In this document: in pieces, positions 20,237 to 58,674 of the stretch
Numbering within the stretch: position 1 is the first letter of the stretch
How the letters are laid out: each line of letters starts with the position of its first letter
The notes under the pieces: generated by a model
What the model was told of the DNA's origin: nothing
Database searches by the model: none
What the model saw: the letters and a program-made list of their open reading frames with translations, nothing else
Made by a program: the position numbers and the translations under genes
Source: a virus
UHGV virus genome: UHGV-0038498
Strand: one strand, 5' to 3'
DNA: 64,000 nt

Positions 20237-20351
20237 ATTGAATTATATTATGGACACTATAAATGATATGATTTTTCATTTTGGTCCAGAATTTTATTCG
20301 CAATATAGTTTAGTGCTTATCAATGCTTGGTTAATCAATTAAGGGTAAAAT

Positions 20352-20564
20352 ATGTATAAATTTCGTAAAGGTTTAGCTGATTTTCTTACAACAGTAACAT
20401 TCTTTTTGTTTATGGCAGTTGGAGCTATTTTCCTTATTCCTTTTATTGTTATATTTTTCGTGATTAGTTTGATTTCTCCAGAAAAAGGACTGTCTTCTAG
20501 CGAGTTCAATGAGCGTCTGGATAAAATTACTAATAAGCTGAATGCTGCTCTTAGTAAGGAATAG
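20352..20564 (+). CDS. small membrane protein (70 aa)
   Basis: Long hydrophobic stretch FFLFMAVGAIFLIPFIVIFFVISLI. Confidence 0.5.
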   Translation: MYKFRKGLADFLTTVTFFLFMAVGAIFLIPFIVIFFVISLISPEKGLSSSEFNERLDKITNKLNAALSKE

Positions 20565-20566
20565 TT

Positions 20567-20875
20567 GTGAAACAAAATAAGATTGAAGTCTATGGAATTC
20601 CAGATGAAGTAGGTCGTTGTCCTGGATGTCAATCAGTTACAAAACTTCTAAAGGAGCTCAATGCTCCTTTTACTTTCTATAAAGTTCTTACAAATAATGG
20701 TAAGATTGAGTATGATCGTCCACTGATTGTATCTCTTGCTAAACGCGCTGGATTCACATCTCTTAACATTCGTTATCCAGTCATTTTCATCAATGATTCT
20801 AGACAAAAGAACATTAAACACTTCAAAGAAACTCTCATTTCACTTGGATATGATAGAGATATCATAGAAGACTAA
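20567..20875 (+). CDS. nrdH: glutaredoxin-like protein NrdH
   Basis: 102 aa; CPGC active-site motif; GTG start; terminator follows. Confidence 0.75.
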   Translation: MKQNKIEVYGIPDEVGRCPGCQSVTKLLKELNAPFTFYKVLTNNGKIEYDRPLIVSLAKRAGFTSLNIRYPVIFINDSRQKNIKHFKETLISLGYDRDIIED

Positions 20876-23543: not shown

Positions 23544-23861
23544 ATGACTGATAAACCCGAAATTAATGATGAAGTGGAAAAGCTTATTTCTTCTATTGAA
23601 GAAAAGAACCGTCTTGAAGCAGAAAGAAAAGCAAATAAGTTATTGTCTAAAAACAAACGCGAACTGAACCGTCTTTATAAGCACGCTCAGATTGCGGCTG
23701 AAAACAATAATTTTGCTCAATACGAATATGCTATCAAGAAAAGTCGGGATATTCTAAAACAGCCATATAACGATGAACTCATTAGTATTCTTTGGAAGAC
23801 TACTAGATCGCAGATTGAGGATATGATTGATGCTTACACACGTAAAATTCAAGCGTCTTAA
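23544..23861 (+). CDS. hypothetical protein (105 aa)
   Basis: ORF track. Confidence 0.5.
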   Translation: MTDKPEINDEVEKLISSIEEKNRLEAERKANKLLSKNKRELNRLYKHAQIAAENNNFAQYEYAIKKSRDILKQPYNDELISILWKTTRSQIEDMIDAYTRKIQAS

Positions 23862-24033
23862 AATTAATGCAGGATTTACTGAATCTTTGAATGGTCATCT
23901 TTGTGTGAAAATTTCTGAAAAAGAATACCATGATAGTTCAATTAAAGAAGTTAATCCTCCTATTGTAAGAGCAGACCCTAATATGAAAGTGTGGGTTGAT
24001 TCTTATCAAGTCAAAAAATGGTGGCAACTGTGA
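23830..24033 (+). CDS. hypothetical protein (67 aa)
   Basis: In-frame ATG of track ORF 23827. Confidence 0.4.
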   Translation: MLTHVKFKRLKINAGFTESLNGHLCVKISEKEYHDSSIKEVNPPIVRADPNMKVWVDSYQVKKWWQL

Positions 24034-24036
24034 AAG

Positions 24037-24210
24037 ATGAACATCCAGACTTGTGAAATAGATTATAATAAAATTCGTTCCTCTAAAGTAGAAATGATGA
24101 GGCGCTTTAAAGAGTCTCATGATAAAGCTAAAGCAGAAGGAACTATAACACATAAACGTATAAAATTTAGAAGCTCTAATGAGCCTCTGTATGGTGTATT
24201 ATGCGGATAG
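24037..24210 (+). CDS. hypothetical protein (57 aa)
   Basis: Hand-translated; hairpin follows stop. Confidence 0.35.
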   Translation: MNIQTCEIDYNKIRSSKVEMMRRFKESHDKAKAEGTITHKRIKFRSSNEPLYGVLCG

Positions 24211-24230
24211 GAGCTTCGGCTCCTATATTG
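24209..24230 (+). terminator. terminator-like hairpin, UUCG tetraloop
   Basis: AGGAGC-TTCG-GCTCCT; weak U-run. Confidence 0.5.
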
Positions 24231-24253
24231 CTTTATAAATTTTTGGTAAAATA
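24228..24253 (+). promoter_or_regulatory. putative MotA-dependent middle promoter (a-gt)
   Basis: MotA-box-like TTGCTTTA about 12 bp upstream of TAAAAT. Confidence 0.45.
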
Positions 24254-24276
24254 AACCAAAACAATGAGGATATTAA

Positions 24277-25479
24277 ATGAAAGTATGCATTTTTATGGCT
24301 CGAGGTCTTGAAGGTTGTGGCGTAACTAAATTTTCTCTTGAGCAACGTGATTGGTTTATTAAAAATGGTCATGAAGTAACTTTGGTTTATGCTAAAGATA
24401 AATCATTTACCCGTAATTGCGCGCATGATTATAAGTCATTTTCAATTCCGGTTTTATTGGCAAAAGAATACGATAAAACACTTAAGTTGGTAAATGATTG
24501 TGATATTCTAATTATCAATTCAGTTCCTGCTACTTCAGTCGAAGAAGACACTATTAATAACTATAAAAAAATTATTGATAACATTAAACCTTCGGTTCGT
24601 GTTGTAGTTTATCAACATGACCATTCTTCTCTTTCTTTGCGTCGAAATTTGGGATTAGAAGAAACTGTTCGCCGAGCTGATGTTATTTTTAGTCATTCTG
24701 ATAATGGTGATTTTAATAAAGTTCTGATGAAAGAATGGTATCCAGAAACTGTTTCACTGTTTGATGATATTGAAGAAGCACCGACCGTATACAACTTTCA
24801 GCCTCCTATGGATATTGCGAAGGTTCGATCAACCTACTGGAAAGATGTTTCTGAAATTAACATGAATGTCAACCGTTGGATTGGTCGTACGACTACATGG
24901 AAAGGTTTTTATCAGATGTTTGATTTTCACGAAAAACATCTTAAACCTGCAGGACTAAGTACTATTATGGAAGGTCTGGAACGTTCTCCAGCGTTCATTC
25001 CTATTAAAGAAAAAGGAATTCCATACGAGTATTATCGTCTTCATCAAGTAGACCAAATTAAAATTGCTCCTAATTTGCCAACGCAAATTCTCGACCGTTA
25101 TGTAAATAGCGAAATGCTTGAACGCATGAGTAAATCCGGATTTGGTTATCAGTTGAGTAAGTTGGACAAAAAATATCTACAACGTTCTTTAGAATATACT
25201 CATCTCGAGCTTGGCGCATGTGGAACAATTCCAGTATTTTGGAAATCTACTGGCGAAAATTTAAAATTCCGTGTTGATAATACTCCGTTAATTTCTCATG
25301 ATAGTGGTATCGTTTGGTTTGATGAAAATGACATGGAATCAACATTTGAGCGTATTAAAGAACTGTCATCTGACCGAGCTCTTTATGACCGTGAACGCGA
25401 AAAAGCTTATGAATTTTTGTATCAGCACCAAGATTCAAGCTTCTGCTTTAAAGAACAGTTTGACATTATTACAAAATAA
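24277..25479 (+). CDS. a-gt: DNA alpha-glucosyltransferase
   Basis: 400 aa, same length as T4 alpha-gt; MotA-box promoter upstream, terminator downstream. Confidence 0.9.
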   Translation: MKVCIFMARGLEGCGVTKFSLEQRDWFIKNGHEVTLVYAKDKSFTRNCAHDYKSFSIPVLLAKEYDKTLKLVNDCDILIINSVPATSVEEDTINNYKKIIDNIKPSVRVVVYQHDHSSLSLRRNLGLEETVRRADVIFSHSDNGDFNKVLMKEWYPETVSLFDDIEEAPTVYNFQPPMDIAKVRSTYWKDVSEINMNVNRWIGRTTTWKGFYQMFDFHEKHLKPAGLSTIMEGLERSPAFIPIKEKGIPYEYYRLHQVDQIKIAPNLPTQILDRYVNSEMLERMSKSGFGYQLSKLDKKYLQRSLEYTHLELGACGTIPVFWKSTGENLKFRVDNTPLISHDSGIVWFDENDMESTFERIKELSSDRALYDREREKAYEFLYQHQDSSFCFKEQFDIITK

Positions 25480-26935: not shown

Positions 26936-27122
26936 CATTAACGATGAATTCGTAGCAAATATTGATTACACCGAAGAAGATTCTAGATATGTTGGAATAA
27001 TTTATATCACATCAAAAGCAGCGCAAGGTGTTGTTTGCATGGCTGAATTTGATGAATACTTTTTAGATTATGATGATATGATAGAATGGTCTAAAAGATA
27101 CATTAAAAGGAATCTTTTGTGA
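26907..27122 (+). CDS. hypothetical protein (about 71 aa)
   Basis: In-frame ATG of track ORF 26859; start uncertain. Confidence 0.4.
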   Translation: MHTVKFSTFDINDEFVANIDYTEEDSRYVGIIYITSKAAQGVVCMAEFDEYFLDYDDMIEWSKRYIKRNLL

Positions 27123-28807
27123 AGAATTTTAAACTAAACCGAGTTAGGTATCAAAATATAATGTCAGTAGGTGGAAATCCTATTGACATTCAACTAGATA
27201 AGGTTCAAAAAACTCTTATTACTGGCCGAAATGGTGGTGGTAAGTCTACTATGTTAGAAGCCATCACATTTGGGCTTTTTGGCAAGCCATTTCGTGATGT
27301 AAAGAAAGGTCAATTAATAAACAGCACAAATAAGAAAGAACTTTTAGTTGAACTGTGGATGGAATATGATGAGAAAAAGTATTATATCAAAAGAGGACAA
27401 AAACCAAACGTTTTCGAAATCACCGTTAACGGTACACGTCTTAATGAATCTGCCAGCAGTAAAGATTTCCAAGCAGAATTTGAACAGCTTATCGGAATGT
27501 CATATGCCAGTTTCAAGCAGATTGTTGTCCTTGGTACAGCAGGGTATACCCCTTTCATGGGTTTGTCGACCCCTGCGCGAAGAAAGCTTGTGGAAGACCT
27601 GCTCGAGGTAGGAACATTAGCTGAAATGGATAAGCTCAATAAAGCACTAATACGTGAATTAAATTCACAAAACCAAGTGCTTGATGTTAAAAAAGATAGT
27701 ATTATCCAGCAAATTAAAATATATAATGATAACGTTGAACGCCAGAAAAAATTAACTGGTGATAACCTTACTCGTCTACAGAATATGTATGATGATTTGG
27801 CAAAAGAAGCTAGAACGTTAAAATCGGAAATAGAAGAAGCTAATGAAAGATTAGTTAATATTGTTTTGGATGAAGACCCGACTGATGCATTTAATAAAAT
27901 CGGTCAAGAAGCATTTTTAATTAAATCAAAAATTGACTCGTATAATAAAGTCATTAATATGTATCACGAAGGTGGATTATGTCCAACCTGTTTGTCACAA
28001 TTAAGTTCCGGCGATAAAGTTGTTTCTAAAATTAAAGATAAAGTTTCTGAATGCACGCATTCGTTTGAACAGCTTTCAACACATCGTGATAATTTAAAAG
28101 TTCTTGTTGATGAATACCGAGATAATATTAAAACCCAGCAGACGTTGGCGAATGATATTCGCAATAAAAAGCAATCTTTAATCACGACTGTAGATAAAGC
28201 TAAAAAAGTTAAAGCAGCTATAGAAAAAGCATCATCCGAGTTTATTGACCATGCTGATGAAATAGCACTGCTTCAAGAAGAACTTGATAAAATTGTTAAG
28301 ACAAAAACTAATTTAGTAATGGAAAAATACCATAGAGGAATTTTGACTGATATGCTCAAAGATTCTGGTATTAAAGGTGCTATTATTAAAAAGTACATTC
28401 CATTATTTAATAAGCAGATTAACCATTATCTTAAAATAATGGAAGCGGATTATGTGTTTACATTAGATGAAGAATTTAATGAGACAATTAAATCCCGCGG
28501 TCGCGAAGATTTTAGTTATGCTTCATTTAGTCAAGGTGAAAAAGCACGAATTGATATTGCTCTTTTATTTACTTGGCGTGATATTGCTGAAAAAGTTTCA
28601 GGTGTTAAAATAAGTTGTTTATTTCTTGATGAAGTGTATGACGGTGCATTTGACGCTGAAGGTATTAAAAATGTGGCTAAAATTTTAGACGGTTTGAAGG
28701 ATACCAACTTCTTCATAATTTCGCATAAAGACCATGACCCACAGGAATATGGTCAGCACATTCAAATGGAAAAAGTTGGTAGATTTAGTTTAGCTAAGAT
28801 TAGCTAG
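27119..28807 (+). CDS. 46: recombination ATPase gp46 (Rad50/SbcC-like)
   Basis: 562 aa; Walker A GRNGGGKST, coiled-coil middle with CPTC hook; GTG start. Confidence 0.92.
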   Translation: MKNFKLNRVRYQNIMSVGGNPIDIQLDKVQKTLITGRNGGGKSTMLEAITFGLFGKPFRDVKKGQLINSTNKKELLVELWMEYDEKKYYIKRGQKPNVFEITVNGTRLNESASSKDFQAEFEQLIGMSYASFKQIVVLGTAGYTPFMGLSTPARRKLVEDLLEVGTLAEMDKLNKALIRELNSQNQVLDVKKDSIIQQIKIYNDNVERQKKLTGDNLTRLQNMYDDLAKEARTLKSEIEEANERLVNIVLDEDPTDAFNKIGQEAFLIKSKIDSYNKVINMYHEGGLCPTCLSQLSSGDKVVSKIKDKVSECTHSFEQLSTHRDNLKVLVDEYRDNIKTQQTLANDIRNKKQSLITTVDKAKKVKAAIEKASSEFIDHADEIALLQEELDKIVKTKTNLVMEKYHRGILTDMLKDSGIKGAIIKKYIPLFNKQINHYLKIMEADYVFTLDEEFNETIKSRGREDFSYASFSQGEKARIDIALLFTWRDIAEKVSGVKISCLFLDEVYDGAFDAEGIKNVAKILDGLKDTNFFIISHKDHDPQEYGQHIQMEKVGRFSLAKIS

Positions 28808-29516
28808 GTTTATATTTACAGTTATCATTATGCCATCTTGATAAATTTCCGAAAGTGGTAACTTTACCACAATGGACGCAAGTACCAGTCTTTTCAGTTT
28901 TCTTGCGTCCATTTGGATTTTTCTTGCAGAAATTTCTATGCGCTGCGATAACGCATTTCTTGCCTATCATTCCGCAGAATTCGCAGGATGTTTCTTCAAG
29001 AACGATTGCTTTAAGCCCGTTTGAGATATTATTTCTGTGTTCTTTAGACATTGGCGGTCTAACTTTAGGATTGGGATGATTTGGGCAGTTATCAAAATGC
29101 CATCGATTCATATTCCCGCTTAATCCAGACTTACCGCAATGTGGACAAGTTAGTCTTGCTTTATTAGCTACTGCATCGGACATTTTCTTTCGTGTCTCTT
29201 GGGAGAACTCTTTATTCTTTTCTATTTCCCAGAGTTTACGACGAATCCAGCCGAAAGTTTTATTGTTACGTTTAGCGTATTTCGTAGAAACTGTCATCAT
29301 GTTAGCAGCATAGACTAATTTTGGTTCAGAAGGATAAATTTTTACTAAAAGTTGATGAGCTACATAGTGCTCTTCTGGTGTTAAATCTACTAAGTTTGAA
29401 GCATCATCGCTGCCATTTAAACAGCGTGGTATAATGTGATGAGATTCAGTATAGCAATCAAGTTTTCGAGATTTAGCATTAGAGATTAACTTTTCATAAA
29501 TTAGTTTATAATTCAT
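28800..29516 (-). mobile_element. free-standing HNH homing endonuclease gene, antisense to flanking genes
   Basis: 238 aa; HNH core ESHHIIPRCLNG..N..EEHYVAHQ; three CxxCG..(RWH.DNC) Zn-knuckles; AAAGGA SD and TATAAATA on minus strand. Confidence 0.8.
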
Positions 29517-29549
29517 AACATATCCTTTTGATACAGCGAGTGATAAACA

Positions 29550-29557
29550 TATTTATA
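29550..29557 (-). promoter_or_regulatory. late promoter TATAAATA on minus strand (HNH endonuclease)
   Basis: Plus-strand TATTTATA, about 30 nt upstream of minus-strand ATG at 29516. Confidence 0.5.
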
Positions 29558-29567
29558 CGGAGGAACT

Positions 29568-29759
29568 GTGGCAGAATATTCAACTGGACAGCATCTATTA
29601 ACTATTCCTGAAATAAAACGATATATTCTGAGAAATAATTTTTCTAATGAAGAGCATATAGTTACTGAATCTATGCTTAAGAATGCATTTAAATCAGAAT
29701 ATACGAAAATAATGTCCAACAGAAATGAAGCTTGGACTGTTACTGATTATTATGACTAA
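29568..29759 (+). CDS. hypothetical protein (63 aa), 45.2-like
   Basis: GTG start after ACGGAGGA. Confidence 0.55.
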   Translation: MAEYSTGQHLLTIPEIKRYILRNNFSNEEHIVTESMLKNAFKSEYTKIMSNRNEAWTVTDYYD

Positions 29760-29768
29760 AGGTGTATT

Positions 29769-30158
29769 ATGACTAAAATTACTGTGAATTATACTGTTGA
29801 TGTAAAAGATATTCAGCCAAAACACGTGCGTTCTGAATCAAATCCACAAAACCAAAATAAAATTCGTCGAGCATGGGTTTTGTCTCTTTCTGATAACGCG
29901 ATGGAAGTTATTCAGAGCAAAATTAAATCTGCACCTGCTCGTCATGCGTATTATGAAGCTATCGATCGTGAAGTAAGCAATAAATGGATTGAACTGATGC
30001 GCAAACATACGGCAGAATCTCTAAATGCTGGTGCTAAATTTATTATGACTTCATGTGGTGAACGTCTTGAAGATGGTTATTGCGGTAATGCAGATGAGCG
30101 TCTAATTGTTGCTGCTCAAATTGTTGCGGAAACAATTGCTGCTGATTTTAATCGTTAA
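29769..30158 (+). CDS. rpbA: RNA polymerase-binding protein RpbA
   Basis: 129 aa; length and position match T4 rpbA. Confidence 0.8.
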
Positions 30159-30184
30159 TTGCTTTATTAAATTAGTTATAAAAT
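30159..30184 (+). promoter_or_regulatory. putative middle promoter (gene 45)
   Basis: TTGCTTTA then TATAAAAT. Confidence 0.5.
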
Positions 30185-30213
30185 TAAATCTCATTTGAAT
30201 TGAAGGAAATTAC

Positions 30214-30900
30214 ATGAAACTGTCTAAAGATACTACTGCTCTGCTCAAAAATTTCGCTACTATTAACTCTGGTATTATGCTTAAATCTGGTCAATTTATT
30301 ATGACTCGCGCAGTTAATGGTACAACTTATGCGGAAGCAAATATTTCTGACACTATTGATTTTGATGTAGCAATTTACGATTTGAACGGTTTTCTCGGTA
30401 TTCTGTCTCTAGTTAATGACGATGCAGAAATTTCCCAGTCAGAAGATGGAAATATTAAAATTGCTGATGCCCGTTCAACAATTTTTTGGCCAGCAGCCGA
30501 TCCGAGTACAGTAGTTGCTCCTAATAAACCGATTCCATTCCCGGTAGCATCTGTTGTTACCGAAATTAAAGCTGAAGACCTTCAACAGCTATTGCGTGTA
30601 TCTCGCGGTCTGCAGATTGATACAATTGCTATCACAGTAAAAGAAGGTAAAATCGTAATTAACGGTTTTAATAAAGTAGAAGATTCTGCTTTGACCCGTG
30701 TTAAATATTCTTTGACTCTTGGTGATTATGATGGTGAAAATACATTTAATTTCATTATCAATATGGCAAATATGAAAATGCAACCAGGAAATTATAAACT
30801 TCTGCTCTGGGCAAAAGGTAAACAAGGCGCTGCTAAATTTGAAGGTGAACATGCGAATTATGTAGTAGCTCTTGAAGCTGATTCTACCCACGATTTTTAA
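30214..30900 (+). CDS. 45: sliding clamp gp45
   Basis: 228 aa, MKLSKDTTALLKNFATINSGIMLKSGQFIM matches T4 gp45. Confidence 0.95.
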   Translation: MKLSKDTTALLKNFATINSGIMLKSGQFIMTRAVNGTTYAEANISDTIDFDVAIYDLNGFLGILSLVNDDAEISQSEDGNIKIADARSTIFWPAADPSTVVAPNKPIPFPVASVVTEIKAEDLQQLLRVSRGLQIDTIAITVKEGKIVINGFNKVEDSALTRVKYSLTLGDYDGENTFNFIINMANMKMQPGNYKLLLWAKGKQGAAKFEGEHANYVVALEADSTHDF

Positions 30901-30902
30901 TA

Positions 30903-30919
30903 GAGGGCTTCGGCCCTTT
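30903..30919 (+). terminator. intrinsic terminator, UUCG tetraloop
   Basis: AGGGC-TTCG-GCCCT then TTT, after gene 45. Confidence 0.65.
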
Positions 30920-30951
30920 ATAATTTACACTAAAACTTGAATGAGGAAATT

Positions 30952-31911
30952 ATGATTACTGTAAATGAAAAAGAACACATTCTTGAACAGAAATATCGTC
31001 CATCTACTATCGATGAATGTATTCTTCCCGCCTTTGATAAAGAAACCTTTAAATCTATTACAAGTAAAGGTAAAATTCCACATATTATTCTTCATTCTCC
31101 TTCTCCAGGAACAGGTAAAACAACTGTAGCAAAAGCATTGTGCCATGATGTAAATGCTGATATGATGTTTGTGAATGGATCAGACTGTAAAATTGATTTC
31201 GTTCGTGGTCCTTTGACTAATTTTGCTAGTGCAGCTTCATTTGATGGTCGTCAAAAAGTAATCGTTATTGATGAATTTGACCGTTCAGGGCTAGCAGAGT
31301 CTCAGCGACATCTTCGTTCCTTTATGGAAGCTTATAGTTCAAACTGTAGTATTATTATTACTGCTAACAATATTGATGGTATTATTAAACCGCTTCAGTC
31401 ACGCTGCCGAGTTATTACATTCGGTCAACCGACTGATGAAGATAAAATTGAAATGATGAAGCAGATGATTCGTCGATTGACTGAAATCTGTAAGCATGAA
31501 GGAATTGCTATAGCTGATATGAAAGTTGTAGCAGCTTTGGTTAAAAAGAATTTTCCTGATTTTCGTAAAACTATTGGTGAGCTCGATAGTTATTCATCTA
31601 AAGGTGTTTTGGATGCTGGTATTTTATCACTGGTTACTAACGATCGTGGTGCTATTGATGATGTTCTTGAATCTCTCAAAAATAAAGATGTTAAACAGCT
31701 CAGAGCTTTAGCGCCAAAATATGCAGCTGATTATTCGTGGTTCGTTGGTAAACTTGCTGAAGAAATCTATACACGCGTAACTCCGCAAAGTATTATTCGT
31801 ATGTATGAAATTGTTGGTGAAAATAACCAGTATCACGGAATTGCGGCTAATACGGAATTACATTTAGCATATCTTTTCATTCAATTGGCATGCGAAATGC
31901 AGTGGAAGTGA
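30952..31911 (+). CDS. 44: clamp loader large subunit gp44
   Basis: 319 aa from ATG 30952 ([17 protein letters not shown]); Walker [11 protein letters not shown]. Confidence 0.95.
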
Positions 31912-33173: not shown

Positions 33174-35870
33174 ATGAAAGAATTTTATATCTCTATCGAA
33201 ACAGTCGGAAATAACATTGTTGAGCGCTATATTGATGAAAACGGAAAGGAACGTACTCGTGAAGTAGAATATCTTCCGACTATGTTTAGGCATTGTAAGG
33301 AAGAGTCAAAATACAAAGACATTTATGGTAAAAATTGCGCTCCTCAAAAATTTCCATCAATGAAAGATGCACGAGACTGGATGAAGCGAATGGAAGACAT
33401 CGGTCTCGAAGCTCTCGGTATGAACGATTTTAAACTCGCTTACATCAGTGATACATATGGTTCAGAAATTGTTTATGACCGAAAATTTGTTCGTGTAGCT
33501 AACTGTGACATTGAGGTTACTGGTGATAAATTTCCTGACCCAATGAAAGCAGAATATGAAATTGATGCTATCACTCATTATGATTCAATTGACGACCGTT
33601 TTTACGTCTTTGACTTGTTGAATTCAATGTACGGTTCAGTATCAAAATGGGATGCAAAGTTAGCTGCTAAGCTTGACTGCGAAGGTGGTGATGAAGTTCC
33701 TCAAGAAATTCTTGACCGAGTAATTTATATGCCATTTGATAATGAGCGTGATATGCTCATGGAATATATTAATCTCTGGGAACAGAAACGACCTGCTATT
33801 TTTACCGGTTGGAATATTGAGGGATTTGACGTTCCGTATATCATGAATCGCGTTAAAATGGTTCTCGGCGAACGCAGTATGAAACGCTTCTCTCCAATCG
33901 GTCGAGTAAAATCTAAACTAATTCAAAATATGTACGGTAGCAAAGAAATTTATTCTATTGATGGCGTATCTATTCTTGATTATTTAGATTTGTACAAGAA
34001 ATTCGCATTTACTAATTTGCCATCATTCTCTTTGGAATCAGTTGCTCAACATGAAACCAAAAAAGGTAAATTACCGTACGATGGTCCTATTAATAAACTT
34101 CGTGAGACTAATCATCAACGATACATTAGTTATAACATCATTGACGTAGAATCAGTTCAAGCAATTGATAAAATTCGTGGGTTTATCGATCTAGTTTTAA
34201 GTATGTCCTATTACGCTAAAATGCCTTTTTCTGGTGTAATGAGTCCTATTAAAACTTGGGATGCTATTATTTTTAACTCACTGAAAGGTGAACATAGGGT
34301 TATTCCTCAACAAGGTTCGCACGTTAAACAGAGTTTTCCAGGTGCATTTGTGTTTGAACCTAAACCGATTGCTCGTCGATACATTATGAGTTTTGACTTG
34401 ACGTCTCTGTATCCTAGCATTATTCGCCAGGTTAACATTAGTCCTGAGACTATTCGCGGGCAGTTTAAAGTTCATCCAATTCATGAATATATCGCAGGAA
34501 CAGCTCCTAAGCCAAGTGATGAATATTCTTGCTCTCCGAATGGATGGATGTATGATAAGCACCAAGAAGGTATCATTCCAAAGGAAATCGCTAAAGTATT
34601 TTTCCAGCGTAAAGATTGGAAAAAGAAAATGTTCGCGGAAGAAATGAATGCCGAAGCTATTAAAAAGATTATTATGAAAGGTGCAGGGTCTTGCTCAACT
34701 AAACCAGAAGTTGAACGATATGTTAAGTTCAGTGATGATTTCTTAAACGAATTATCGAATTACACCGAATCTGTTCTTAATAGTCTGATCGAAGAATGTG
34801 AAAAAGCTGCTACGCTTGCTAACACAAATCAGCTGAACCGTAAAATTCTTATTAACAGTCTTTATGGTGCTCTTGGTAATATTCATTTCCGTTACTATGA
34901 TTTGCGAAATGCTACTGCTATCACAATTTTCGGTCAAGTCGGTATTCAGTGGATTGCTCGTAAAATTAATGAATATCTGAATAAAGTATGTGGAACTAAT
35001 GGTGAAGATTTCATCGCAGCAGGTGATACTGATTCGGTATATGTTTGTGTAGATAAAGTTATTGAAAAAGTAGGTCTTGACCGCTTTAAAGAACAAAATG
35101 ATTTAGTTGAATTCATGAATCAGTTTGGTAAGAAAAAGATGGAACCTATGATTGATGTTGCATATCGTGAGTTATGTGATTATATGAATAACCGCGAGCA
35201 TCTGATGCATATGGACCGTGAAGCTATTTCTTGCCCTCCGCTTGGTTCAAAGGGTGTTGGTGGATTTTGGAAAGCGAAAAAACGTTATGCTCTGAACGTT
35301 TATGATATGGAAGATAAGCGATTTGCCGAACCGCATCTAAAAATTATGGGTATGGAAACTCAACAGAGTTCAACACCAAAAGCAGTACAAGAAGCTCTCG
35401 AAGAAAGTATTCGTCGTATTCTTCAGGAAGGTGAAGAGTCTGTCCAAGAATACTACAAGAACTTTGAGAAAGAATATCGTCAACTTGACTATAAAGTTAT
35501 TGCTGAAGTAAAAACTGCGAACGATATAGCGAAATATGACGATAAAGGTTGGCCAGGATTTAAATGTCCGTTCCATATTCGCGGTGTGCTAACTTATCGT
35601 CGAGCTGTTAACGGTTTAGGTGTAGCTCCAATTTTGGATGGAAATAAGGTAATGGTTCTTCCATTACGTGAAGGAAATCCATTTGGTGACAAGTGCATTG
35701 CTTGGCCATCAGGCACAGAACTTCCAAAAGAAATTCGTTCTGATGTACTGTCTTGGATTGACTACTCAACTTTGTTCCAAAAATCGTTTGTTAAACCGCT
35801 TGCGGGTATGTGTGAATCGGCGGGTATGGACTATGAGGAAAAAGCTTCGTTAGACTTCCTGTTTGGCTGA
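33174..35870 (+). CDS. 43: DNA polymerase gp43 (family B)
   Basis: 898 aa, same length as T4 gp43; exonuclease and polymerase motifs (DTDS). Confidence 0.95.
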   Translation: MKEFYISIETVGNNIVERYIDENGKERTREVEYLPTMFRHCKEESKYKDIYGKNCAPQKFPSMKDARDWMKRMEDIGLEALGMNDFKLAYISDTYGSEIVYDRKFVRVANCDIEVTGDKFPDPMKAEYEIDAITHYDSIDDRFYVFDLLNSMYGSVSKWDAKLAAKLDCEGGDEVPQEILDRVIYMPFDNERDMLMEYINLWEQKRPAIFTGWNIEGFDVPYIMNRVKMVLGERSMKRFSPIGRVKSKLIQNMYGSKEIYSIDGVSILDYLDLYKKFAFTNLPSFSLESVAQHETKKGKLPYDGPINKLRETNHQRYISYNIIDVESVQAIDKIRGFIDLVLSMSYYAKMPFSGVMSPIKTWDAIIFNSLKGEHRVIPQQGSHVKQSFPGAFVFEPKPIARRYIMSFDLTSLYPSIIRQVNISPETIRGQFKVHPIHEYIAGTAPKPSDEYSCSPNGWMYDKHQEGIIPKEIAKVFFQRKDWKKKMFAEEMNAEAIKKIIMKGAGSCSTKPEVERYVKFSDDFLNELSNYTESVLNSLIEECEKAATLANTNQLNRKILINSLYGALGNIHFRYYDLRNATAITIFGQVGIQWIARKINEYLNKVCGTNGEDFIAAGDTDSVYVCVDKVIEKVGLDRFKEQNDLVEFMNQFGKKKMEPMIDVAYRELCDYMNNREHLMHMDREAISCPPLGSKGVGGFWKAKKRYALNVYDMEDKRFAEPHLKIMGMETQQSSTPKAVQEALEESIRRILQEGEESVQEYYKNFEKEYRQLDYKVIAEVKTANDIAKYDDKGWPGFKCPFHIRGVLTYRRAVNGLGVAPILDGNKVMVLPLREGNPFGDKCIAWPSGTELPKEIRSDVLSWIDYSTLFQKSFVKPLAGMCESAGMDYEEKASLDFLFG

Positions 35871-49789: not shown

Positions 49790-50101
49790 ATGTTTTATGT
49801 ATATGCGATAGTTTATAGAGATAAAGATGGATTTACGGCGCCTGTTCCGCTTGATGAACATCGTCCTGCTGTATTTTTTGAAAGGGAGATTGCTGATAAA
49901 GTATTTACCACTCTTAAAGAGCAGTATCGACTAGCTTTAGGTATGGGACTTCCGAGATTAGTTGAGACTCCACGCAAGTTTTGGTTTAATAAAATAGAAG
50001 TTAAACATGTTAAGCCTGATGTAGATACACAAAGATTATATCGGCGAATTTTAGATACTGGGCGTATTGTTAGTATACCAATTGCAGGGAATTTACGATG
50101 A
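49790..50101 (+). CDS. hypothetical protein (103 aa), dda.1 position
   Basis: ORF track. Confidence 0.55.
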   Translation: MFYVYAIVYRDKDGFTAPVPLDEHRPAVFFEREIADKVFTTLKEQYRLALGMGLPRLVETPRKFWFNKIEVKHVKPDVDTQRLYRRILDTGRIVSIPIAGNLR

Positions 50102-51417
50102 CATTTGATGATTTGACCGAAGGCCAGAAAAATGCCTTTAACATCGTTATGAGGGCTATTAAAGAAAAGAAACATCATGTAACTATTAATGGACCTGCTG
50201 GTACTGGTAAGACTACTCTTACTAAGTTCATCATTGAAGCCTTAATATCTACGGGCGAAACTGGCATTATTTTAGCAGCTCCTACTCATGCAGCTAAAAA
50301 GATTCTTTCAAAACTGTCAGGGAAAGAAGCGAGTACTATTCACAGTATTCTCAAAATTAACCCGGTAACATATGAAGAAAACGTTCTTTTTGAACAAAAG
50401 GAAGTGCCAGATTTAGCTAAATGCAGAGTATTAATCTGCGACGAAGTGTCAATGTATGATAGAAAGCTATTTAAAATTCTGCTTTCAACTATCCCGCCGT
50501 GGTGTACTATAATTGGAATAGGCGATAATAAGCAAATTAGACCTGTTGACCCAGGAGAAAATACTGCTTATATCAGTCCGTTCTTTACACATAAAGATTT
50601 TTATCAGTGTGAACTCACTGAAGTTAAACGCAGTAATGCTCCTATTATTGATGTAGCTACTGATGTTCGCAACGGTAAGTGGATTTATGATAAAGTTGTT
50701 GACGGGCATGGAGTACGTGGATTTACGGGTGATACCGCTTTACGCGATTTTATGGTAAATTATTTTTCAATCGTAAAATCGCTAGATGATTTGTTTGAAA
50801 ATCGCGTAATGGCATTTACGAATAAATCTGTTGATAAGTTAAATAGCATTATTCGCAAAAAGATTTTTGAAACTGATAAAGATTTTATCGTTGGCGAAAT
50901 TATTGTAATGCAGGAACCATTAATTAAAACATATAAAATTGATGGAAAGCCTGTGTCAGAAATTATTTTTAATAACGGACAATTAGTTCGTATTATAGAA
51001 GCAGAGTATACATCAACATTTGTTAAAGCTCGTGGTGTTTCTGGAGAATATCTAATTCGTCATTGGGATTTAACAGTAGAAACTTACGGCGATGATGAAT
51101 ATTATCGTGAAAAGATTAAAATAATTTCATCTGATGAAGAGCTGTATAAGTTTAACTTATTTTTAGGTAAAACGGCAGAAACTTATAAAAATTGGAATAA
51201 AGGTGGAAAAGCTCCGTGGAGTGATTTTTGGGATGCTAAATCACAGTTTAGTAAAGTGAAAGCACTTCCTGCATCAACATTCCACAAAGCTCAGGGCATG
51301 TCTGTAGACCGTGCTTTCATCTATACGCCTTGTATTCATTATGCAGATGCTGAATTGGCTCAGCAGCTTCTTTATGTTGGTGTCACTCGTGGTCGTTATG
51401 ATGTGTTTTATGTGTGA
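50098..51417 (+). CDS. dda: Dda DNA helicase (SF1)
   Basis: 439 aa; Walker A GPAGTGKTT, Walker B LICDEVSM; matches T4 Dda length. Confidence 0.93.
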   Translation: MTFDDLTEGQKNAFNIVMRAIKEKKHHVTINGPAGTGKTTLTKFIIEALISTGETGIILAAPTHAAKKILSKLSGKEASTIHSILKINPVTYEENVLFEQKEVPDLAKCRVLICDEVSMYDRKLFKILLSTIPPWCTIIGIGDNKQIRPVDPGENTAYISPFFTHKDFYQCELTEVKRSNAPIIDVATDVRNGKWIYDKVVDGHGVRGFTGDTALRDFMVNYFSIVKSLDDLFENRVMAFTNKSVDKLNSIIRKKIFETDKDFIVGEIIVMQEPLIKTYKIDGKPVSEIIFNNGQLVRIIEAEYTSTFVKARGVSGEYLIRHWDLTVETYGDDEYYREKIKIISSDEELYKFNLFLGKTAETYKNWNKGGKAPWSDFWDAKSQFSKVKALPASTFHKAQGMSVDRAFIYTPCIHYADAELAQQLLYVGVTRGRYDVFYV

Positions 51418-56150: not shown

Positions 56151-56522
56151 ATGTTTAAAATTGGTAAGAAATATCGCATTCGTGAAGGTGAAGAACAGAA
56201 ATATCTACTTTCTGCTAGTAATAGGAATAGTTCTATTAATGCTGTAATATTGACTAGTGAATTTATCGTTGAAGATATGAAAGGTCATAATGTTACAATG
56301 ATTAGTACAGCATCTGGAAATGATGGAAAAATTCTTCATAGTTGTCAGAGTAATGTTCTAATTTATGATGAAGAATTTGACTTCTTTAAAGAAGTTTCCG
56401 AAGATTTTAATTTTGAATGTACTATTACTATGAAATCTGGTGACCCTCTTTCTTTTACAGTTAAAGATGAAAGAAGTCGCTTGAGAATTATTAGTCTTCT
56501 TCAAGCCATTAAATTTGAGTGA
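56151..56522 (+). CDS. hypothetical protein (123 aa)
   Basis: ORF track. Confidence 0.5.
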   Translation: MFKIGKKYRIREGEEQKYLLSASNRNSSINAVILTSEFIVEDMKGHNVTMISTASGNDGKILHSCQSNVLIYDEEFDFFKEVSEDFNFECTITMKSGDPLSFTVKDERSRLRIISLLQAIKFE

Positions 56523-56526
56523 AATT

Positions 56527-56787
56527 ATGAAATATATTAATCGTTCTATCGCAGCATTAGTATTAGCAGTGTCTTTAGCAGGATGTACTGATGCTGATAA
56601 TGCAACCAAAGTTTTGTCTTCAAGCGGTTTTACTAATATTGAAATCACTGGATACAATTGGTTCGGTTGCTCTGAAAATGATTTCCAACATACTGGATTT
56701 CGCGCTATTGGACCTACCGGGCAGAAAGTAGAAGGAACCGTATGTTCTGGTCTATTCTTCAAGGATTCGACTATCCGTTTTAAATAA
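56527..56787 (+). CDS. predicted lipoprotein (86 aa)
   Basis: Signal peptide with lipobox LAGC; terminator follows. Confidence 0.55.
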   Translation: MKYINRSIAALVLAVSLAGCTDADNATKVLSSSGFTNIEITGYNWFGCSENDFQHTGFRAIGPTGQKVEGTVCSGLFFKDSTIRFK

Positions 56788-56804
56788 AAGGCCTTCGGGC
56801 CTTT
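56787..56804 (+). terminator. intrinsic terminator, UUCG tetraloop
   Basis: AAAGGCC-TTCG-GGCCTTT. Confidence 0.65.
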
Positions 56805-56829
56805 AGCTTTATGATTACCGGAGTATAAT
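56804..56829 (+). promoter_or_regulatory. putative middle promoter (gene 39)
   Basis: TAGCTTTA, 12 bp, TATAAT. Confidence 0.45.
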
Positions 56830-56856
56830 ATTCCCGAAACCAAACGAGGATAAGTG

Positions 56857-58674
56857 ATGATTAAGAATGAAATTAAAATTCTGAGCGATATTGAACATAT
56901 CAAAAAGCGTAGCGGCATGTATATTGGCTCTTCTGCTAATGAAATGCATGAGCGCTTTCTGTTTGGTAAATGGGAAAGTGTTCAGTATGTACCTGGTCTT
57001 GTTAAGCTTATTGATGAAATTATCGATAACTCAGTAGATGAAGGTATTCGTACTAAGTTTAAATTCGCAAATAAAATTAACGTTACTATTAAAAACAATC
57101 AAGTAACAGTTGAAGATAACGGTCGTGGTATTCCGCAAGCGATGGTTAAAACACCTACCGGCGAAGAAATTCCTGGTCCTGTTGCTGCCTGGACTATTCC
57201 AAAAGCAGGTGGTAACTTTGGTGATGATAAAGAACGCGTCACTGGCGGTATGAATGGTGTTGGTTCTAGTTTAACTAACATTTTTTCTGTGATGTTTGTT
57301 GGTGAAACTGGCGACGGTCAAAATAATATTGTAGTTCGTTGTTCAAATGGCATGGAAAATAAATCATGGGAAGATATTCCCGGAAAATGGAAAGGAACTC
57401 GTGTTACTTTCATTCCTGATTTTATGTCATTTGAAACTAATGAGCTATCTCAAGTTTATCTTGACATTACACTAGATCGTCTCCAGACACTTGCAGTAGT
57501 TTATCCTGATATTCAATTTACCTTTAATGGTAAAAAGGTTCAGGGTAATTTTAAGAAATATGCACGCCAATATGATGAGCATGCTATTGTTCAAGAACAA
57601 GAAAATTGTTCTATTGCGGTTGGTCGTTCACCGGATGGTTTTCGTCAATTAACATACGTCAATAACATTCATACTAAGAATGGTGGCCATCATATTGACT
57701 GTGTTATGGATGATATTTGTGAAGACCTTATTCCACAAATCAAACGTAAGTTCAAAATTGATGTAACTAAAGCACGTGTTAAAGAATGTTTGACTATCGT
57801 CATGTTTGTTCGTGATATGAAAAACATGCGATTTGATTCTCAAACTAAAGAGCGTTTGACTTCTCCATTTGGTGAAATTCGTAGTCATATTCAGCTTGAT
57901 GCTAAAAAGATTTCACGCGCTATTTTAAACAATGAAGCAATTTTAATGCCAATTATTGAAGCTGCTTTGGCTCGTAAATTGGCGGCAGAAAAAGCAGCAG
58001 AAACTAAAGCAGCTAAAAAGGCTTCTAAAGCTAAGGTTCATAAACATATTAAAGCGAATCTTTGCGGTAAAGATGCTGACACGACTCTTTTCTTGACTGA
58101 GGGTGATTCTGCTATCGGATATCTTATTGATGTTCGTGATAAAGAACTTCATGGTGGTTATCCATTACGTGGTAAAGTTCTCAACAGTTGGGGTATGTCA
58201 TATGCTGATATGCTTAAAAATAAAGAACTGTTTGATATTTGCGCAATCACTGGATTAGTTCTTGGTGAAAAGGCTGAAAACTTAAATTATCATAATATTG
58301 CCATTATGACTGACGCTGACCATGATGGTCTAGGAAGCATTTATCCTTCTCTGCTCGGATTTTTTAGTAATTGGCCAGAACTGTTTGAACAAGGAAGAAT
58401 TCGCTTTGTCAAAACTCCTGTAATCATCGCTCAGGTCGGTAAAAAACAAGAATGGTTTTATACAGTCGCTGAATATGAGAGTGCCAAAGATGCTCTACCT
58501 AAACATAGCATCCGTTATATTAAAGGACTTGGCTCTTTGGAAAAATCTGAATATCGTGAGATGATTCAAAATCCAGTATATGATGTTGTTAAACTTCCTG
58601 AGAACTGGAAAGAGCTTTTTGAAATGCTCATGGGAGATAATGCTGACCTTCGTAAAGAATGGATGAGCCAGTAG
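56857..58674 (+). CDS. 39: DNA topoisomerase II large subunit gp39, unsplit (39 plus 60 equivalent)
   Basis: 605 aa continuous ORF, MIKNEIKILSDIEHIKKRSGMYIGS; GHKL ATPase motifs. Confidence 0.92.
   Translation: MIKNEIKILSDIEHIKKRSGMYIGSSANEMHERFLFGKWESVQYVPGLVKLIDEIIDNSVDEGIRTKFKFANKINVTIKNNQVTVEDNGRGIPQAMVKTPTGEEIPGPVAAWTIPKAGGNFGDDKERVTGGMNGVGSSLTNIFSVMFVGETGDGQNNIVVRCSNGMENKSWEDIPGKWKGTRVTFIPDFMSFETNELSQVYLDITLDRLQTLAVVYPDIQFTFNGKKVQGNFKKYARQYDEHAIVQEQENCSIAVGRSPDGFRQLTYVNNIHTKNGGHHIDCVMDDICEDLIPQIKRKFKIDVTKARVKECLTIVMFVRDMKNMRFDSQTKERLTSPFGEIRSHIQLDAKKISRAILNNEAILMPIIEAALARKLAAEKAAETKAAKKASKAKVHKHIKANLCGKDADTTLFLTEGDSAIGYLIDVRDKELHGGYPLRGKVLNSWGMSYADMLKNKELFDICAITGLVLGEKAENLNYHNIAIMTDADHDGLGSIYPSLLGFFSNWPELFEQGRIRFVKTPVIIAQVGKKQEWFYTVAEYESAKDALPKHSIRYIKGLGSLEKSEYREMIQNPVYDVVKLPENWKELFEMLMGDNADLRKEWMSQ

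Follow-up and report, generated by a model that had tools for sequence, protein, structure and literature searches.

The DNA analysed here, a 64,000-nucleotide stretch of the virus genome UHGV-0038498 (hereafter the window), represents the arm of early and middle genes in a T4-like phage (Tequatrovirus), its plus strand corresponding to the complement strand of T4. The plus-strand genes run in the order a-gt, 47, 46.2, 46.1, 46 (27119-28807), 45.2 (starting at 29568), rpbA, 45, 44, 62, 43 and onward. Between genes 46 and 45.2, antisense to all of its neighbours, sits a putative free-standing homing endonuclease gene (HEG), which is the subject of this report (Table 1). The flanking genes are separate, complete open reading frames (ORFs). 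An Rfam search of positions 27000-31000 found no group I intron near the HEG, and there is no intein context either. The original prediction, made from the letters of the window, had given 28800-29557 as the gene; its coding part (28800-29516) stands, whereas 29517-29557 turned out to be 5' untranslated region (5'UTR) and promoter. The overlap with the last codons of gene 46 that it described was recovered from the ORF coordinates, and its statement that T4 has no endonuclease gene at this position agrees with the T4 spacer between 46 and 45.2, which is 55 nt long.

The HEG had also been called the only sizeable minus-strand gene of the window, and this was supported for the ORFs tested. Of the nine other minus-strand ORFs of at least 90 amino acids (aa), three were scanned for family matches (56358-56918, 49813-50178 and 20339-20632; 186, 121 and 97 aa). 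None of the three matched a PHROG family, and they were treated as spurious; two plus-strand ORFs overlapping the 186-aa frame do match PHROG families. The sign of the AT skew flips over 28800-29400, across the HEG ORF.

The HEG product has 2304 homologues and matches PHROG 655 'homing endonuclease' with an E value of 8.6e-69. The HNH catalytic core that had been read from the sequence, ESHHIIPRCLNGSDDASNLVDLTPEEHYVAHQ (residues 24-55), was borne out: two alignments, one with 30 and one with 39 homologues, show no variation at H26, H27, N41, H50 or H54, in keeping with an H-N-H motif made up of a general-base His, a structural Asn and a metal-binding His/Asn. In the structure model, which has an overall predicted local distance difference test score (pLDDT) of 89, strands 24-27 and 42-45 are followed by a helix at 47-60 with a pLDDT of about 96, the beta-beta-alpha order of an H-N-H motif. 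The Pfam HNH (PF01844) score of the product is 16.9 bits, below the cutoff of 21.4, whereas its relatives P0116 (25.1 bits) and T4 MobB (22.5 bits) lie above it; thus, membership in the HNH family rests on transitive homology. BLASTP searches revealed 44% identity between N-terminal residues 1-110 and T4 MobB (E 6e-30), together with matches to MobC (37%, E 1e-22), MobD (53%, E 9e-24) and RB3 MobE (36%, E 2e-23). The homology to Mob proteins covers the N-terminal ~75-140 residues of the product. T4 MobA-E have been placed in group 1 of the His-Me finger endonucleases (Jablonska et al. 2017).

The C-terminal part of the protein is of a different kind. Residues 154-236 align to residues 180-266 of I-TevIII (BLASTP E 7e-8; hhalign probability 97.2%, E 3e-11), and three zinc-finger motifs are modelled with high confidence as a beta-hairpin plus a helix; finger 1 is a predicted beta-beta-alpha unit with a pLDDT above 90. 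In finger 3, C213, C216, H229 and C233 are invariant in the family. Two NUMOD3-like helices accompany the fingers, and NUMOD3 scores above threshold in many family members. Three zinc repeats ending in RWHxDNC had been described at first sight. The three modules stand, while this ending occurs only in the first and third, the middle one reading AAHRNFC. By these alignments, the supposed zinc knuckles are predicted DNA-binding fingers of the I-TevIII type, and the HEG product is, as far as homology and modelling can tell, a modular protein that joins a nuclease of the Mob type to a zinc-finger DNA-binding domain of the I-TevIII type.

The HEG has signals for its own expression. A Shine-Dalgarno sequence and a minus-strand late promoter of T4 type, TATAAATA, stand upstream of the start codon, as had been predicted. 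Three copies of TATAAATA were observed in the 64 kb against 9.9 expected by chance, and because the motif is rarer than chance the copy before the HEG is not background. Between promoter and Shine-Dalgarno sequence lies a 5'UTR element that is invariant in seven diverged lineages although their coding DNA is only ~68-74% identical; neither the rest of the window nor the T4 47-62 region yielded a further copy. This element might be an operator bound by the enzyme's own fingers. We considered an operator for which the promoter and 5'UTR of the HEG would resemble empty-site DNA as those of I-TevI resemble its homing site, and rejected it, as the best match was no better than shuffles. A hairpin sequestering the ribosome-binding site, as in mobE or I-TevI, was also rejected, as neither the late nor the read-through 5' fold was significant (z -1.4 and -0.5). 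Downstream of the HEG, a search for a terminator gave one weak terminator-like site at ~300 nt, no more than expected by chance.

Since the HEG is antisense to the early and middle transcription of the arm, it can be expressed only from its own late promoter. Its orientation thereby achieves the late restriction that other T4 endonucleases obtain from hairpins sequestering the ribosome-binding site, and the late antisense transcript must run into gene 46. Inside the HEG, on the opposite strand, a middle-promoter-like motif was found, one of five strict matches of this type on the plus strand of the window versus two on the minus strand. It is present in 7/7 Tequatrovirus copies of the HEG and not in those of Bp7, Roth04 and F2. 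In phage fPS-90 the empty 46/45.2 spacer, which the inserted cassette displaces, is annotated 'predicted middle promoter'; judging from the motif, the copy inside the HEG may replace the displaced promoter.

We then turned to the distribution of the HEG in other phages. The population counts rest on GenBank phage records (RefSeq/GenBank duplicates included), because IMG/VR returned only six loci, all six of them empty. A total of 654 phage records matched the region, ~503 of them at the Tequatrovirus level. The HEG is present in 60 of these ~503, so that ~88% of the close relatives lack it, and the empty sites sampled have a uniform span of 1084-1087 bp; among Mosigvirus-type records, 14 of ~157 are filled. 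The filled genomes span several ICTV species (RB32, ecomg28 and zeezeethirty were seen directly, and further RefSeq phages are among the matches). The same locus holds an antisense HEG with 55-65% protein identity in six other T-even lineages: Bp7 (Dhakavirus), Klebsiella phage Roth04, the Mosigvirus-like F2, Yersinia phage MHG19 and two metagenomic T-even contigs. The gene is intact in the window and in 12/12 other copies examined. A presence/absence polymorphism at one locus with a defined empty allele is what a homing gene would be expected to leave. With empty-site alleles in the majority, the HNH catalytic residues intact, a catalytic domain homologous to Mob proteins and the match to PHROG 655, the original prediction of a mobile insertion absent from relatives holds.

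The flanks point in the same direction. At 1.5 kb from the HEG, the flanks of filled phages are as diverse among themselves as filled-versus-empty pairs, and over its 5' end, gene 46 of the window shares 98% identity with four empty loci and 93-94% with four filled ones. The cassette itself diverges by only 0.6-3.6% among filled genomes. Alignment of the locus with T4 and other empty alleles, the check that had been proposed with the prediction, gave the boundaries of the insertion. Similarity to empty alleles ends within the last 4-5 codons of gene 46, which the cassette supplies (…RFSLAKIS vs …RFTVMV in T4), and returns at codon 2-3 of gene 45.2; in filled alleles, cassette sequence stands in place of the entire 55-nt spacer and of the 45.2 start codon.

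Divergence is not confined to the junctions. Over ~215 bp of the gene 46 tail, filled and empty alleles differ by 9-22% against a background of 1-3%. Eighteen fixed differences between filled and empty alleles fall at 28616-28788 and one on the 45.2 side, and about half of the codon changes in the tail, which encodes the end of the Rad50-like gp46, are non-synonymous. A search with the 215-bp tail alone gave 60 records at ≥90% identity and ~930 at 60-80%. Linkage of the tail allele to the HEG, as co-conversion would produce, is thus seen in the population pattern rather than in crosses. By these alignments, the mobile unit is larger than the ORF, including a recoded ~215-bp gene 46 tail and a new 45.2 start. 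Roth04, F2 and Bp7 were considered as donors of the tail and rejected, none matching better than background at the DNA level; for this reason, the protein-level resemblance of the window's tail to Roth04 (CLFLDEVYDGAFDAEGIKNV) is not evidence of recent transfer. The Bp7 gene 46 is annotated in two pieces (803-2303 of its locus), with frame shifts at Walker B, where the patch described below begins; they could be sequencing error or real damage.

Empty genomes are themselves polymorphic in this part of gene 46. They carry at least two alleles that differ only in an internal patch of ~170 bp (28590-28758), with identical sequence on both sides, and Mosigvirus empties also vary in this patch, its left edge being unchanged; among them, the HEG-less phages ZQ3 and AV112 are 97-100% identical elsewhere and 26-29% different within it. 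The HEG-less T4, L004 and AV112, which represent two genera, share the codons ACW YTR ATT CTT GAT GAR GTK TTT GAT (TLILDEVFD) at Walker B, and 7/7 filled alleles differ from them at four or more positions. In addition, the HEG-less phage KMB22 (OR539217; 1501-1772 of its locus) combines a T4-type spacer with an HEG-type Walker B patch. It is a natural recombinant whose crossover lies in the conserved H-loop segment, and the reciprocal combination of HEG and T4-type patch was not found among the 60 filled records.

In T-even phages, endonucleases that are free-standing characteristically cleave at a distance of hundreds of bp from the gene encoding them, within a conserved neighbour (PMC2988022). 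Taken with the one-sided divergence and the codons shared by HEG-less alleles, this leads us to place the recognition or cleavage site of the HEG product in the tail of gene 46 as found in HEG-less alleles, the Walker B codons being the foremost candidate; the tail linked to the HEG would then be a diverged, presumably immune version of the target. The HEG thus probably spreads by cutting the neighbouring gene 46 in phages without it. In a mixed infection of a filled phage with an HEG-less relative, the enzyme would bind DNA through its three CCHC fingers and NUMOD3-like helices, and the HEG-less allele would be nicked or cut, most likely within the last ~200 bp of gene 46 and possibly at the Walker B codons, ~165-190 bp from the insertion point. 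In the recombination-dependent repair of T4, the filled genome would serve as the template from which the HEG, the gene 46 tail linked to it and the rebuilt 45.2 start are copied; this genome would itself be shielded because its own gene 46 tail differs in sequence.

Table 1. Features of the endonuclease locus in the window, with positions numbered from the first nucleotide of the window
Feature	Positions	Strand	Basis or remark
Free-standing HNH homing endonuclease gene (HEG), 238 aa	28800..29516	-	ORF, PHROG 655, 98% identity to RB32ORF054w
Tail-to-tail overlap of HEG stop and gene 46 stop, 8 nt	28800..28807	.	gene 46 = 27119..28807 (+)
HNH catalytic core, residues 24-54 (E24, H26, H27, N41, H50, H54)	29355..29447	-	invariance, MobB homology
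NUMOD3-like helix 1 (SQETRKKMS, residues 105-113)	29178..29204	-	weak Pfam NUMOD3 match; helix 106-117 in model
Zinc finger 1, CX2CX12HX3C, residues 124-144	29085..29147	-	regex scan; BLASTP match to I-TevIII finger
NUMOD3-like helix 2 (SKEHRNNIS, residues 157-165)	29022..29048	-	hhalign to I-TevIII LSEDHKKRTS
Zinc finger 2, CX2CX11HX3C, residues 178-197	28926..28985	-	aligned to I-TevIII finger I (C211/C214)
Zinc finger 3, CX2CX12HX3C, residues 213-233	28818..28880	-	aligned to I-TevIII finger II (C242/C245)
Late promoter of T4 type, TATAAATA, 33 nt upstream of ATG	29550..29557	-	exact in 6/7 diverged lineages; CATAAATA in the seventh
Conserved 5'UTR element TTATC-n-GTYGC-n-GTATCRAA, between promoter and Shine-Dalgarno sequence	29527..29546	-	positions invariant across 7 lineages
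Shine-Dalgarno sequence AAGGA, 6 nt before ATG	29523..29527	-	sequence; AGGA/GGAG present in all lineages
Middle-promoter-like motif (ATTGCTTTA-N12-TATTAT), inside HEG and antisense to it	29005..29032	+	strict MotA-type match
HEG-linked allele of gene 46 3' end (Walker B, D-loop, H-loop, last codons)	28589..28799	+	fixed differences
Candidate recognition/cleavage site in HEG-less alleles, Walker B codons	28616..28642	+	allele comparison; = T4 ~33461-33487 (ACATTAATTCTTGATGAAGTGTTTGAT)
Right junction, 45.2 start rebuilt as GTG GCA (T4: ATG)	29568..29575	+	alignment to empty alleles

We therefore regard it as likely that this locus holds a free-standing, late-transcribed HNH homing endonuclease gene, a hybrid of Mob and I-TevIII parts, that homes by cutting the gene 46 tail of HEG-less phages. 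Enzymatic activity, current mobility, the position of the cut and its nature, a nick versus a double-strand break, are points that we infer from comparison of alleles and homologues. Several observations weigh against this interpretation. First, the Pfam HNH and NUMOD3 scores of the product are both below the curated cutoffs, and a literature search found no activity, cleavage or cross data for it. Second, the DNA identity of the HEG between genera (~68-74%) is similar to that of host genes, and since the two divergences run in parallel, long vertical residence with losses could explain the inter-genus pattern. Third, the HEG-less ZQ3 carries the tail of the filled phage F2 (F2 locus 2022-2160), so that divergence of the tail is not strictly tied to the HEG. 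Finally, the records with the tail allele and those with the HEG agree by equal count (60) rather than by a record-by-record join, and the Walker B candidate rests on 11 alleles that are not phylogenetically independent.

A bolder version of this interpretation is that the HEG targets the Walker B segment of gene 46 and that the patch alleles are resistance alleles spread by gene conversion of the patch, which would amount to a running arms race inside an essential gene. At least three sharply bounded patch alleles of ~170 bp, including that of KMB22, occur in HEG-less T-even phages of two genera, and we offer this version only tentatively, as a possibility on the doubtful side. Gene 46 encodes the Rad50-like subunit of the very nuclease by which breaks are processed in homing.

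An alternative with some force is that the enzyme homes on a target in the replaced 46/45.2 spacer or at the 45.2 start, and that the gene 46 tail is a co-conversion relic of the original donor. The replacement of the whole spacer and of the 45.2 start codon in filled alleles would fit such a target, as would the tail that the empty Mosigvirus allele ZQ3 shares with F2, and KMB22 reveals that patch and HEG are separable. However, those free-standing T-even endonucleases that have been characterised cut at a distance, inside conserved neighbouring genes, and the ~170-bp patch polymorphism, bounded on both sides and found in HEG-less genomes of both genera, is as expected around a recurrent break. 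The T4-type tail, moreover, occurs in 0/60 filled records. We consider a spacer target unlikely, and the KMB22 allele would discriminate it from a target in the patch.

The HEG could also be a resident element, an old immobile passenger like T4 mobA and T4 I-TevIII, with its patchiness due to ancestry, deletion and ordinary recombination and the tail being merely linked DNA. Besides the parallel divergence of HEG and host genes between genera, the presence of the HEG at one locus in seven lineages can be reconciled with ancient residence, the frequency of the gene is only ~9-12%, and defunct T4 homing endonuclease genes provide precedents (PMC2988022, PMC2790892). These defunct genes are truncated, whereas the window copy and 12/12 other copies examined keep their full length, the catalytic and zinc ligands being invariant and the promoter and 5'UTR conserved. 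Filled genomes also share a near-identical cassette (0.6-3.6% divergence) within otherwise mosaic flanks. Stagnation thus seems to us quite improbable.

Homing by cutting gene 46 also has to be set against the idea that the HEG is kept mainly for the benefit of the phage, through exclusion of relatives, through DNA-binding regulation via the 5'UTR element or through late antisense damping of gene 46, with selfish spread being secondary. The strongly conserved 5'UTR motif and the antisense transcript that must enter gene 46 are in line with such roles, I-TevI doubles as an autorepressor, and homing endonuclease genes cause marker exclusion (PMC2988022). Against this, ~88% of the close relatives do without the HEG, and its 5'UTR has neither similarity to empty-site DNA nor significant RNA structure, which makes a main role of this kind very doubtful. 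That the frame is a chance antisense ORF and not a gene has only the unusual orientation in its favour and is refuted by its many homologues, the PHROG match, the confident structure model, its own Shine-Dalgarno sequence and promoter, and the strand-specific flip of the AT skew.

Other endonuclease genes were observed around gene 46. Between 46.1 and 46, phages N2, G28 and RB68 have a further homing endonuclease gene, which is co-oriented (450-1304, 450-1304 and 451-1304 of loci L014, L015 and L018, respectively), so that their gene 46 is flanked on both sides by endonuclease genes. The first 150 bp of gene 46 (window 27119-27268) have a raised diversity of 5-8% in all groups, which may be the footprint of the 46.1/46 endonuclease element. 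Phage F2 has an 'HNH endonuclease' gene directly upstream of gene 46 (1-546 of its locus), where others have 46.1 and 46.2. An extra ORF of 295 aa lies between rpbA and gene 45 in phage N2 (4356-5243 of its locus) and is absent from the window and the other loci.

Elsewhere in the window, a single ORF of 606 aa (56854-58674) occupies the position of the split topoisomerase genes 39 and 60 of T4, which are separated there by mobA, and judging from ORF length only, this phage seems to have an unsplit topoisomerase gene. The ORFs matching a-gt.2 and a-gt are separated by a gap of only ~416 bp (23861-24277) where T4 has mobB, which, going by the ORF list only, seems absent from the window. Among the database records, PV654520.1, 'Pseudomonas phage vB_PSGBLB0006' (142 kb), matches T4-like phages of E. 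coli at 98-99% identity throughout the region, and its host label or its assembly may be wrong.

The closest known counterpart of the HEG is RB32ORF054w (YP_802996) of phage RB32, the same gene at the same locus with the same orientation and gene 46 overlap, annotated 'homing endonuclease, similar to mobB'; nothing material differs between the two. RB32 has been listed with two mob-like HNH homing endonuclease genes (Petrov et al. 2010, PMC2993671). Orthologues in RB51, RB68 and ~57 other Tequatrovirus records are 97-99.7% identical to the window HEG in DNA, and a literature search for biochemical or genetic characterisation of RB32ORF054w or its orthologues found none. The consequence for genome annotation is therefore small, as RB32 and dozens of other records already carry the homing endonuclease label for the gene. 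The label 'similar to mobB', however, hides a domain swap, and I-TevIII offers a characterised model for DNA binding. Because the mobile unit holds a recoded part of an essential gene, phages that are otherwise 98% identical are mosaic at the 3' end of gene 46, which matters for gene 46 phylogeny and for the engineering of therapeutic T4-like phages. The population pattern also gives a concrete prediction of the cut position and of natural alleles that are expected to be immune.

The Mob endonucleases of T4 share the homologous catalytic domain and are likewise free-standing between conserved genes, and MobE has been demonstrated to be mobile and to nick the neighbouring nrdB (PMC2790892). The C terminus of MobB consists of two NUMOD1 modules (E 1e-26), whereas the window HEG product has no NUMOD1 and carries three unrelated CCHC fingers. 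Its lack of a MobB-type C terminus does not exclude it from the broader Mob family, since each mob gene has a distinct C-terminal region (PMC2988022). In T4, mobA-D point the same way as the genes next to them, and several mob genes, mobE among them, depend on promoters upstream (PMC2988022); in contrast, the HEG is antisense, has its own late promoter and occupies a different locus.

I-TevIII, from the nrdB intron of phage RB3, provides the homologous C-terminal module, a NUMOD3-like helix followed by two CX2CX12-13HX3C fingers. In I-TevIII these fingers bind zinc, DNA binding depends on them, and they are located in the region of dimerisation (Robbins et al. 2007, PMC1865063). Zinc binding, dimerisation and a double-strand break leaving 2-nt 3' overhangs (PMC1865063) are known only for I-TevIII. 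Its HNH residues stand at the same positions (H26, H27, N39/41 and H48/50), and neither BLASTP nor hhalign found significant pairwise similarity between the two HNH domains. I-TevIII is encoded in an intron and has two fingers in 269 aa, whereas the window HEG is free-standing and its product has three fingers in 238 aa. For the orientation, T4 segD is a precedent, being a free-standing endonuclease gene antisense to its neighbours (PMC2988022). It belongs to the GIY-YIG family, no specific promoter has been found for it and its transcript levels are assumed to be very low, in contrast to the conserved late promoter of the HEG. Thus, the HEG is already known at the level of annotation and fits the established biology of free-standing T-even endonucleases, to which the present analysis makes the modest additions of the I-TevIII-type finger assignment, the extended cassette with its recoded gene 46 tail, and a prediction of the cut site and of naturally immune alleles.

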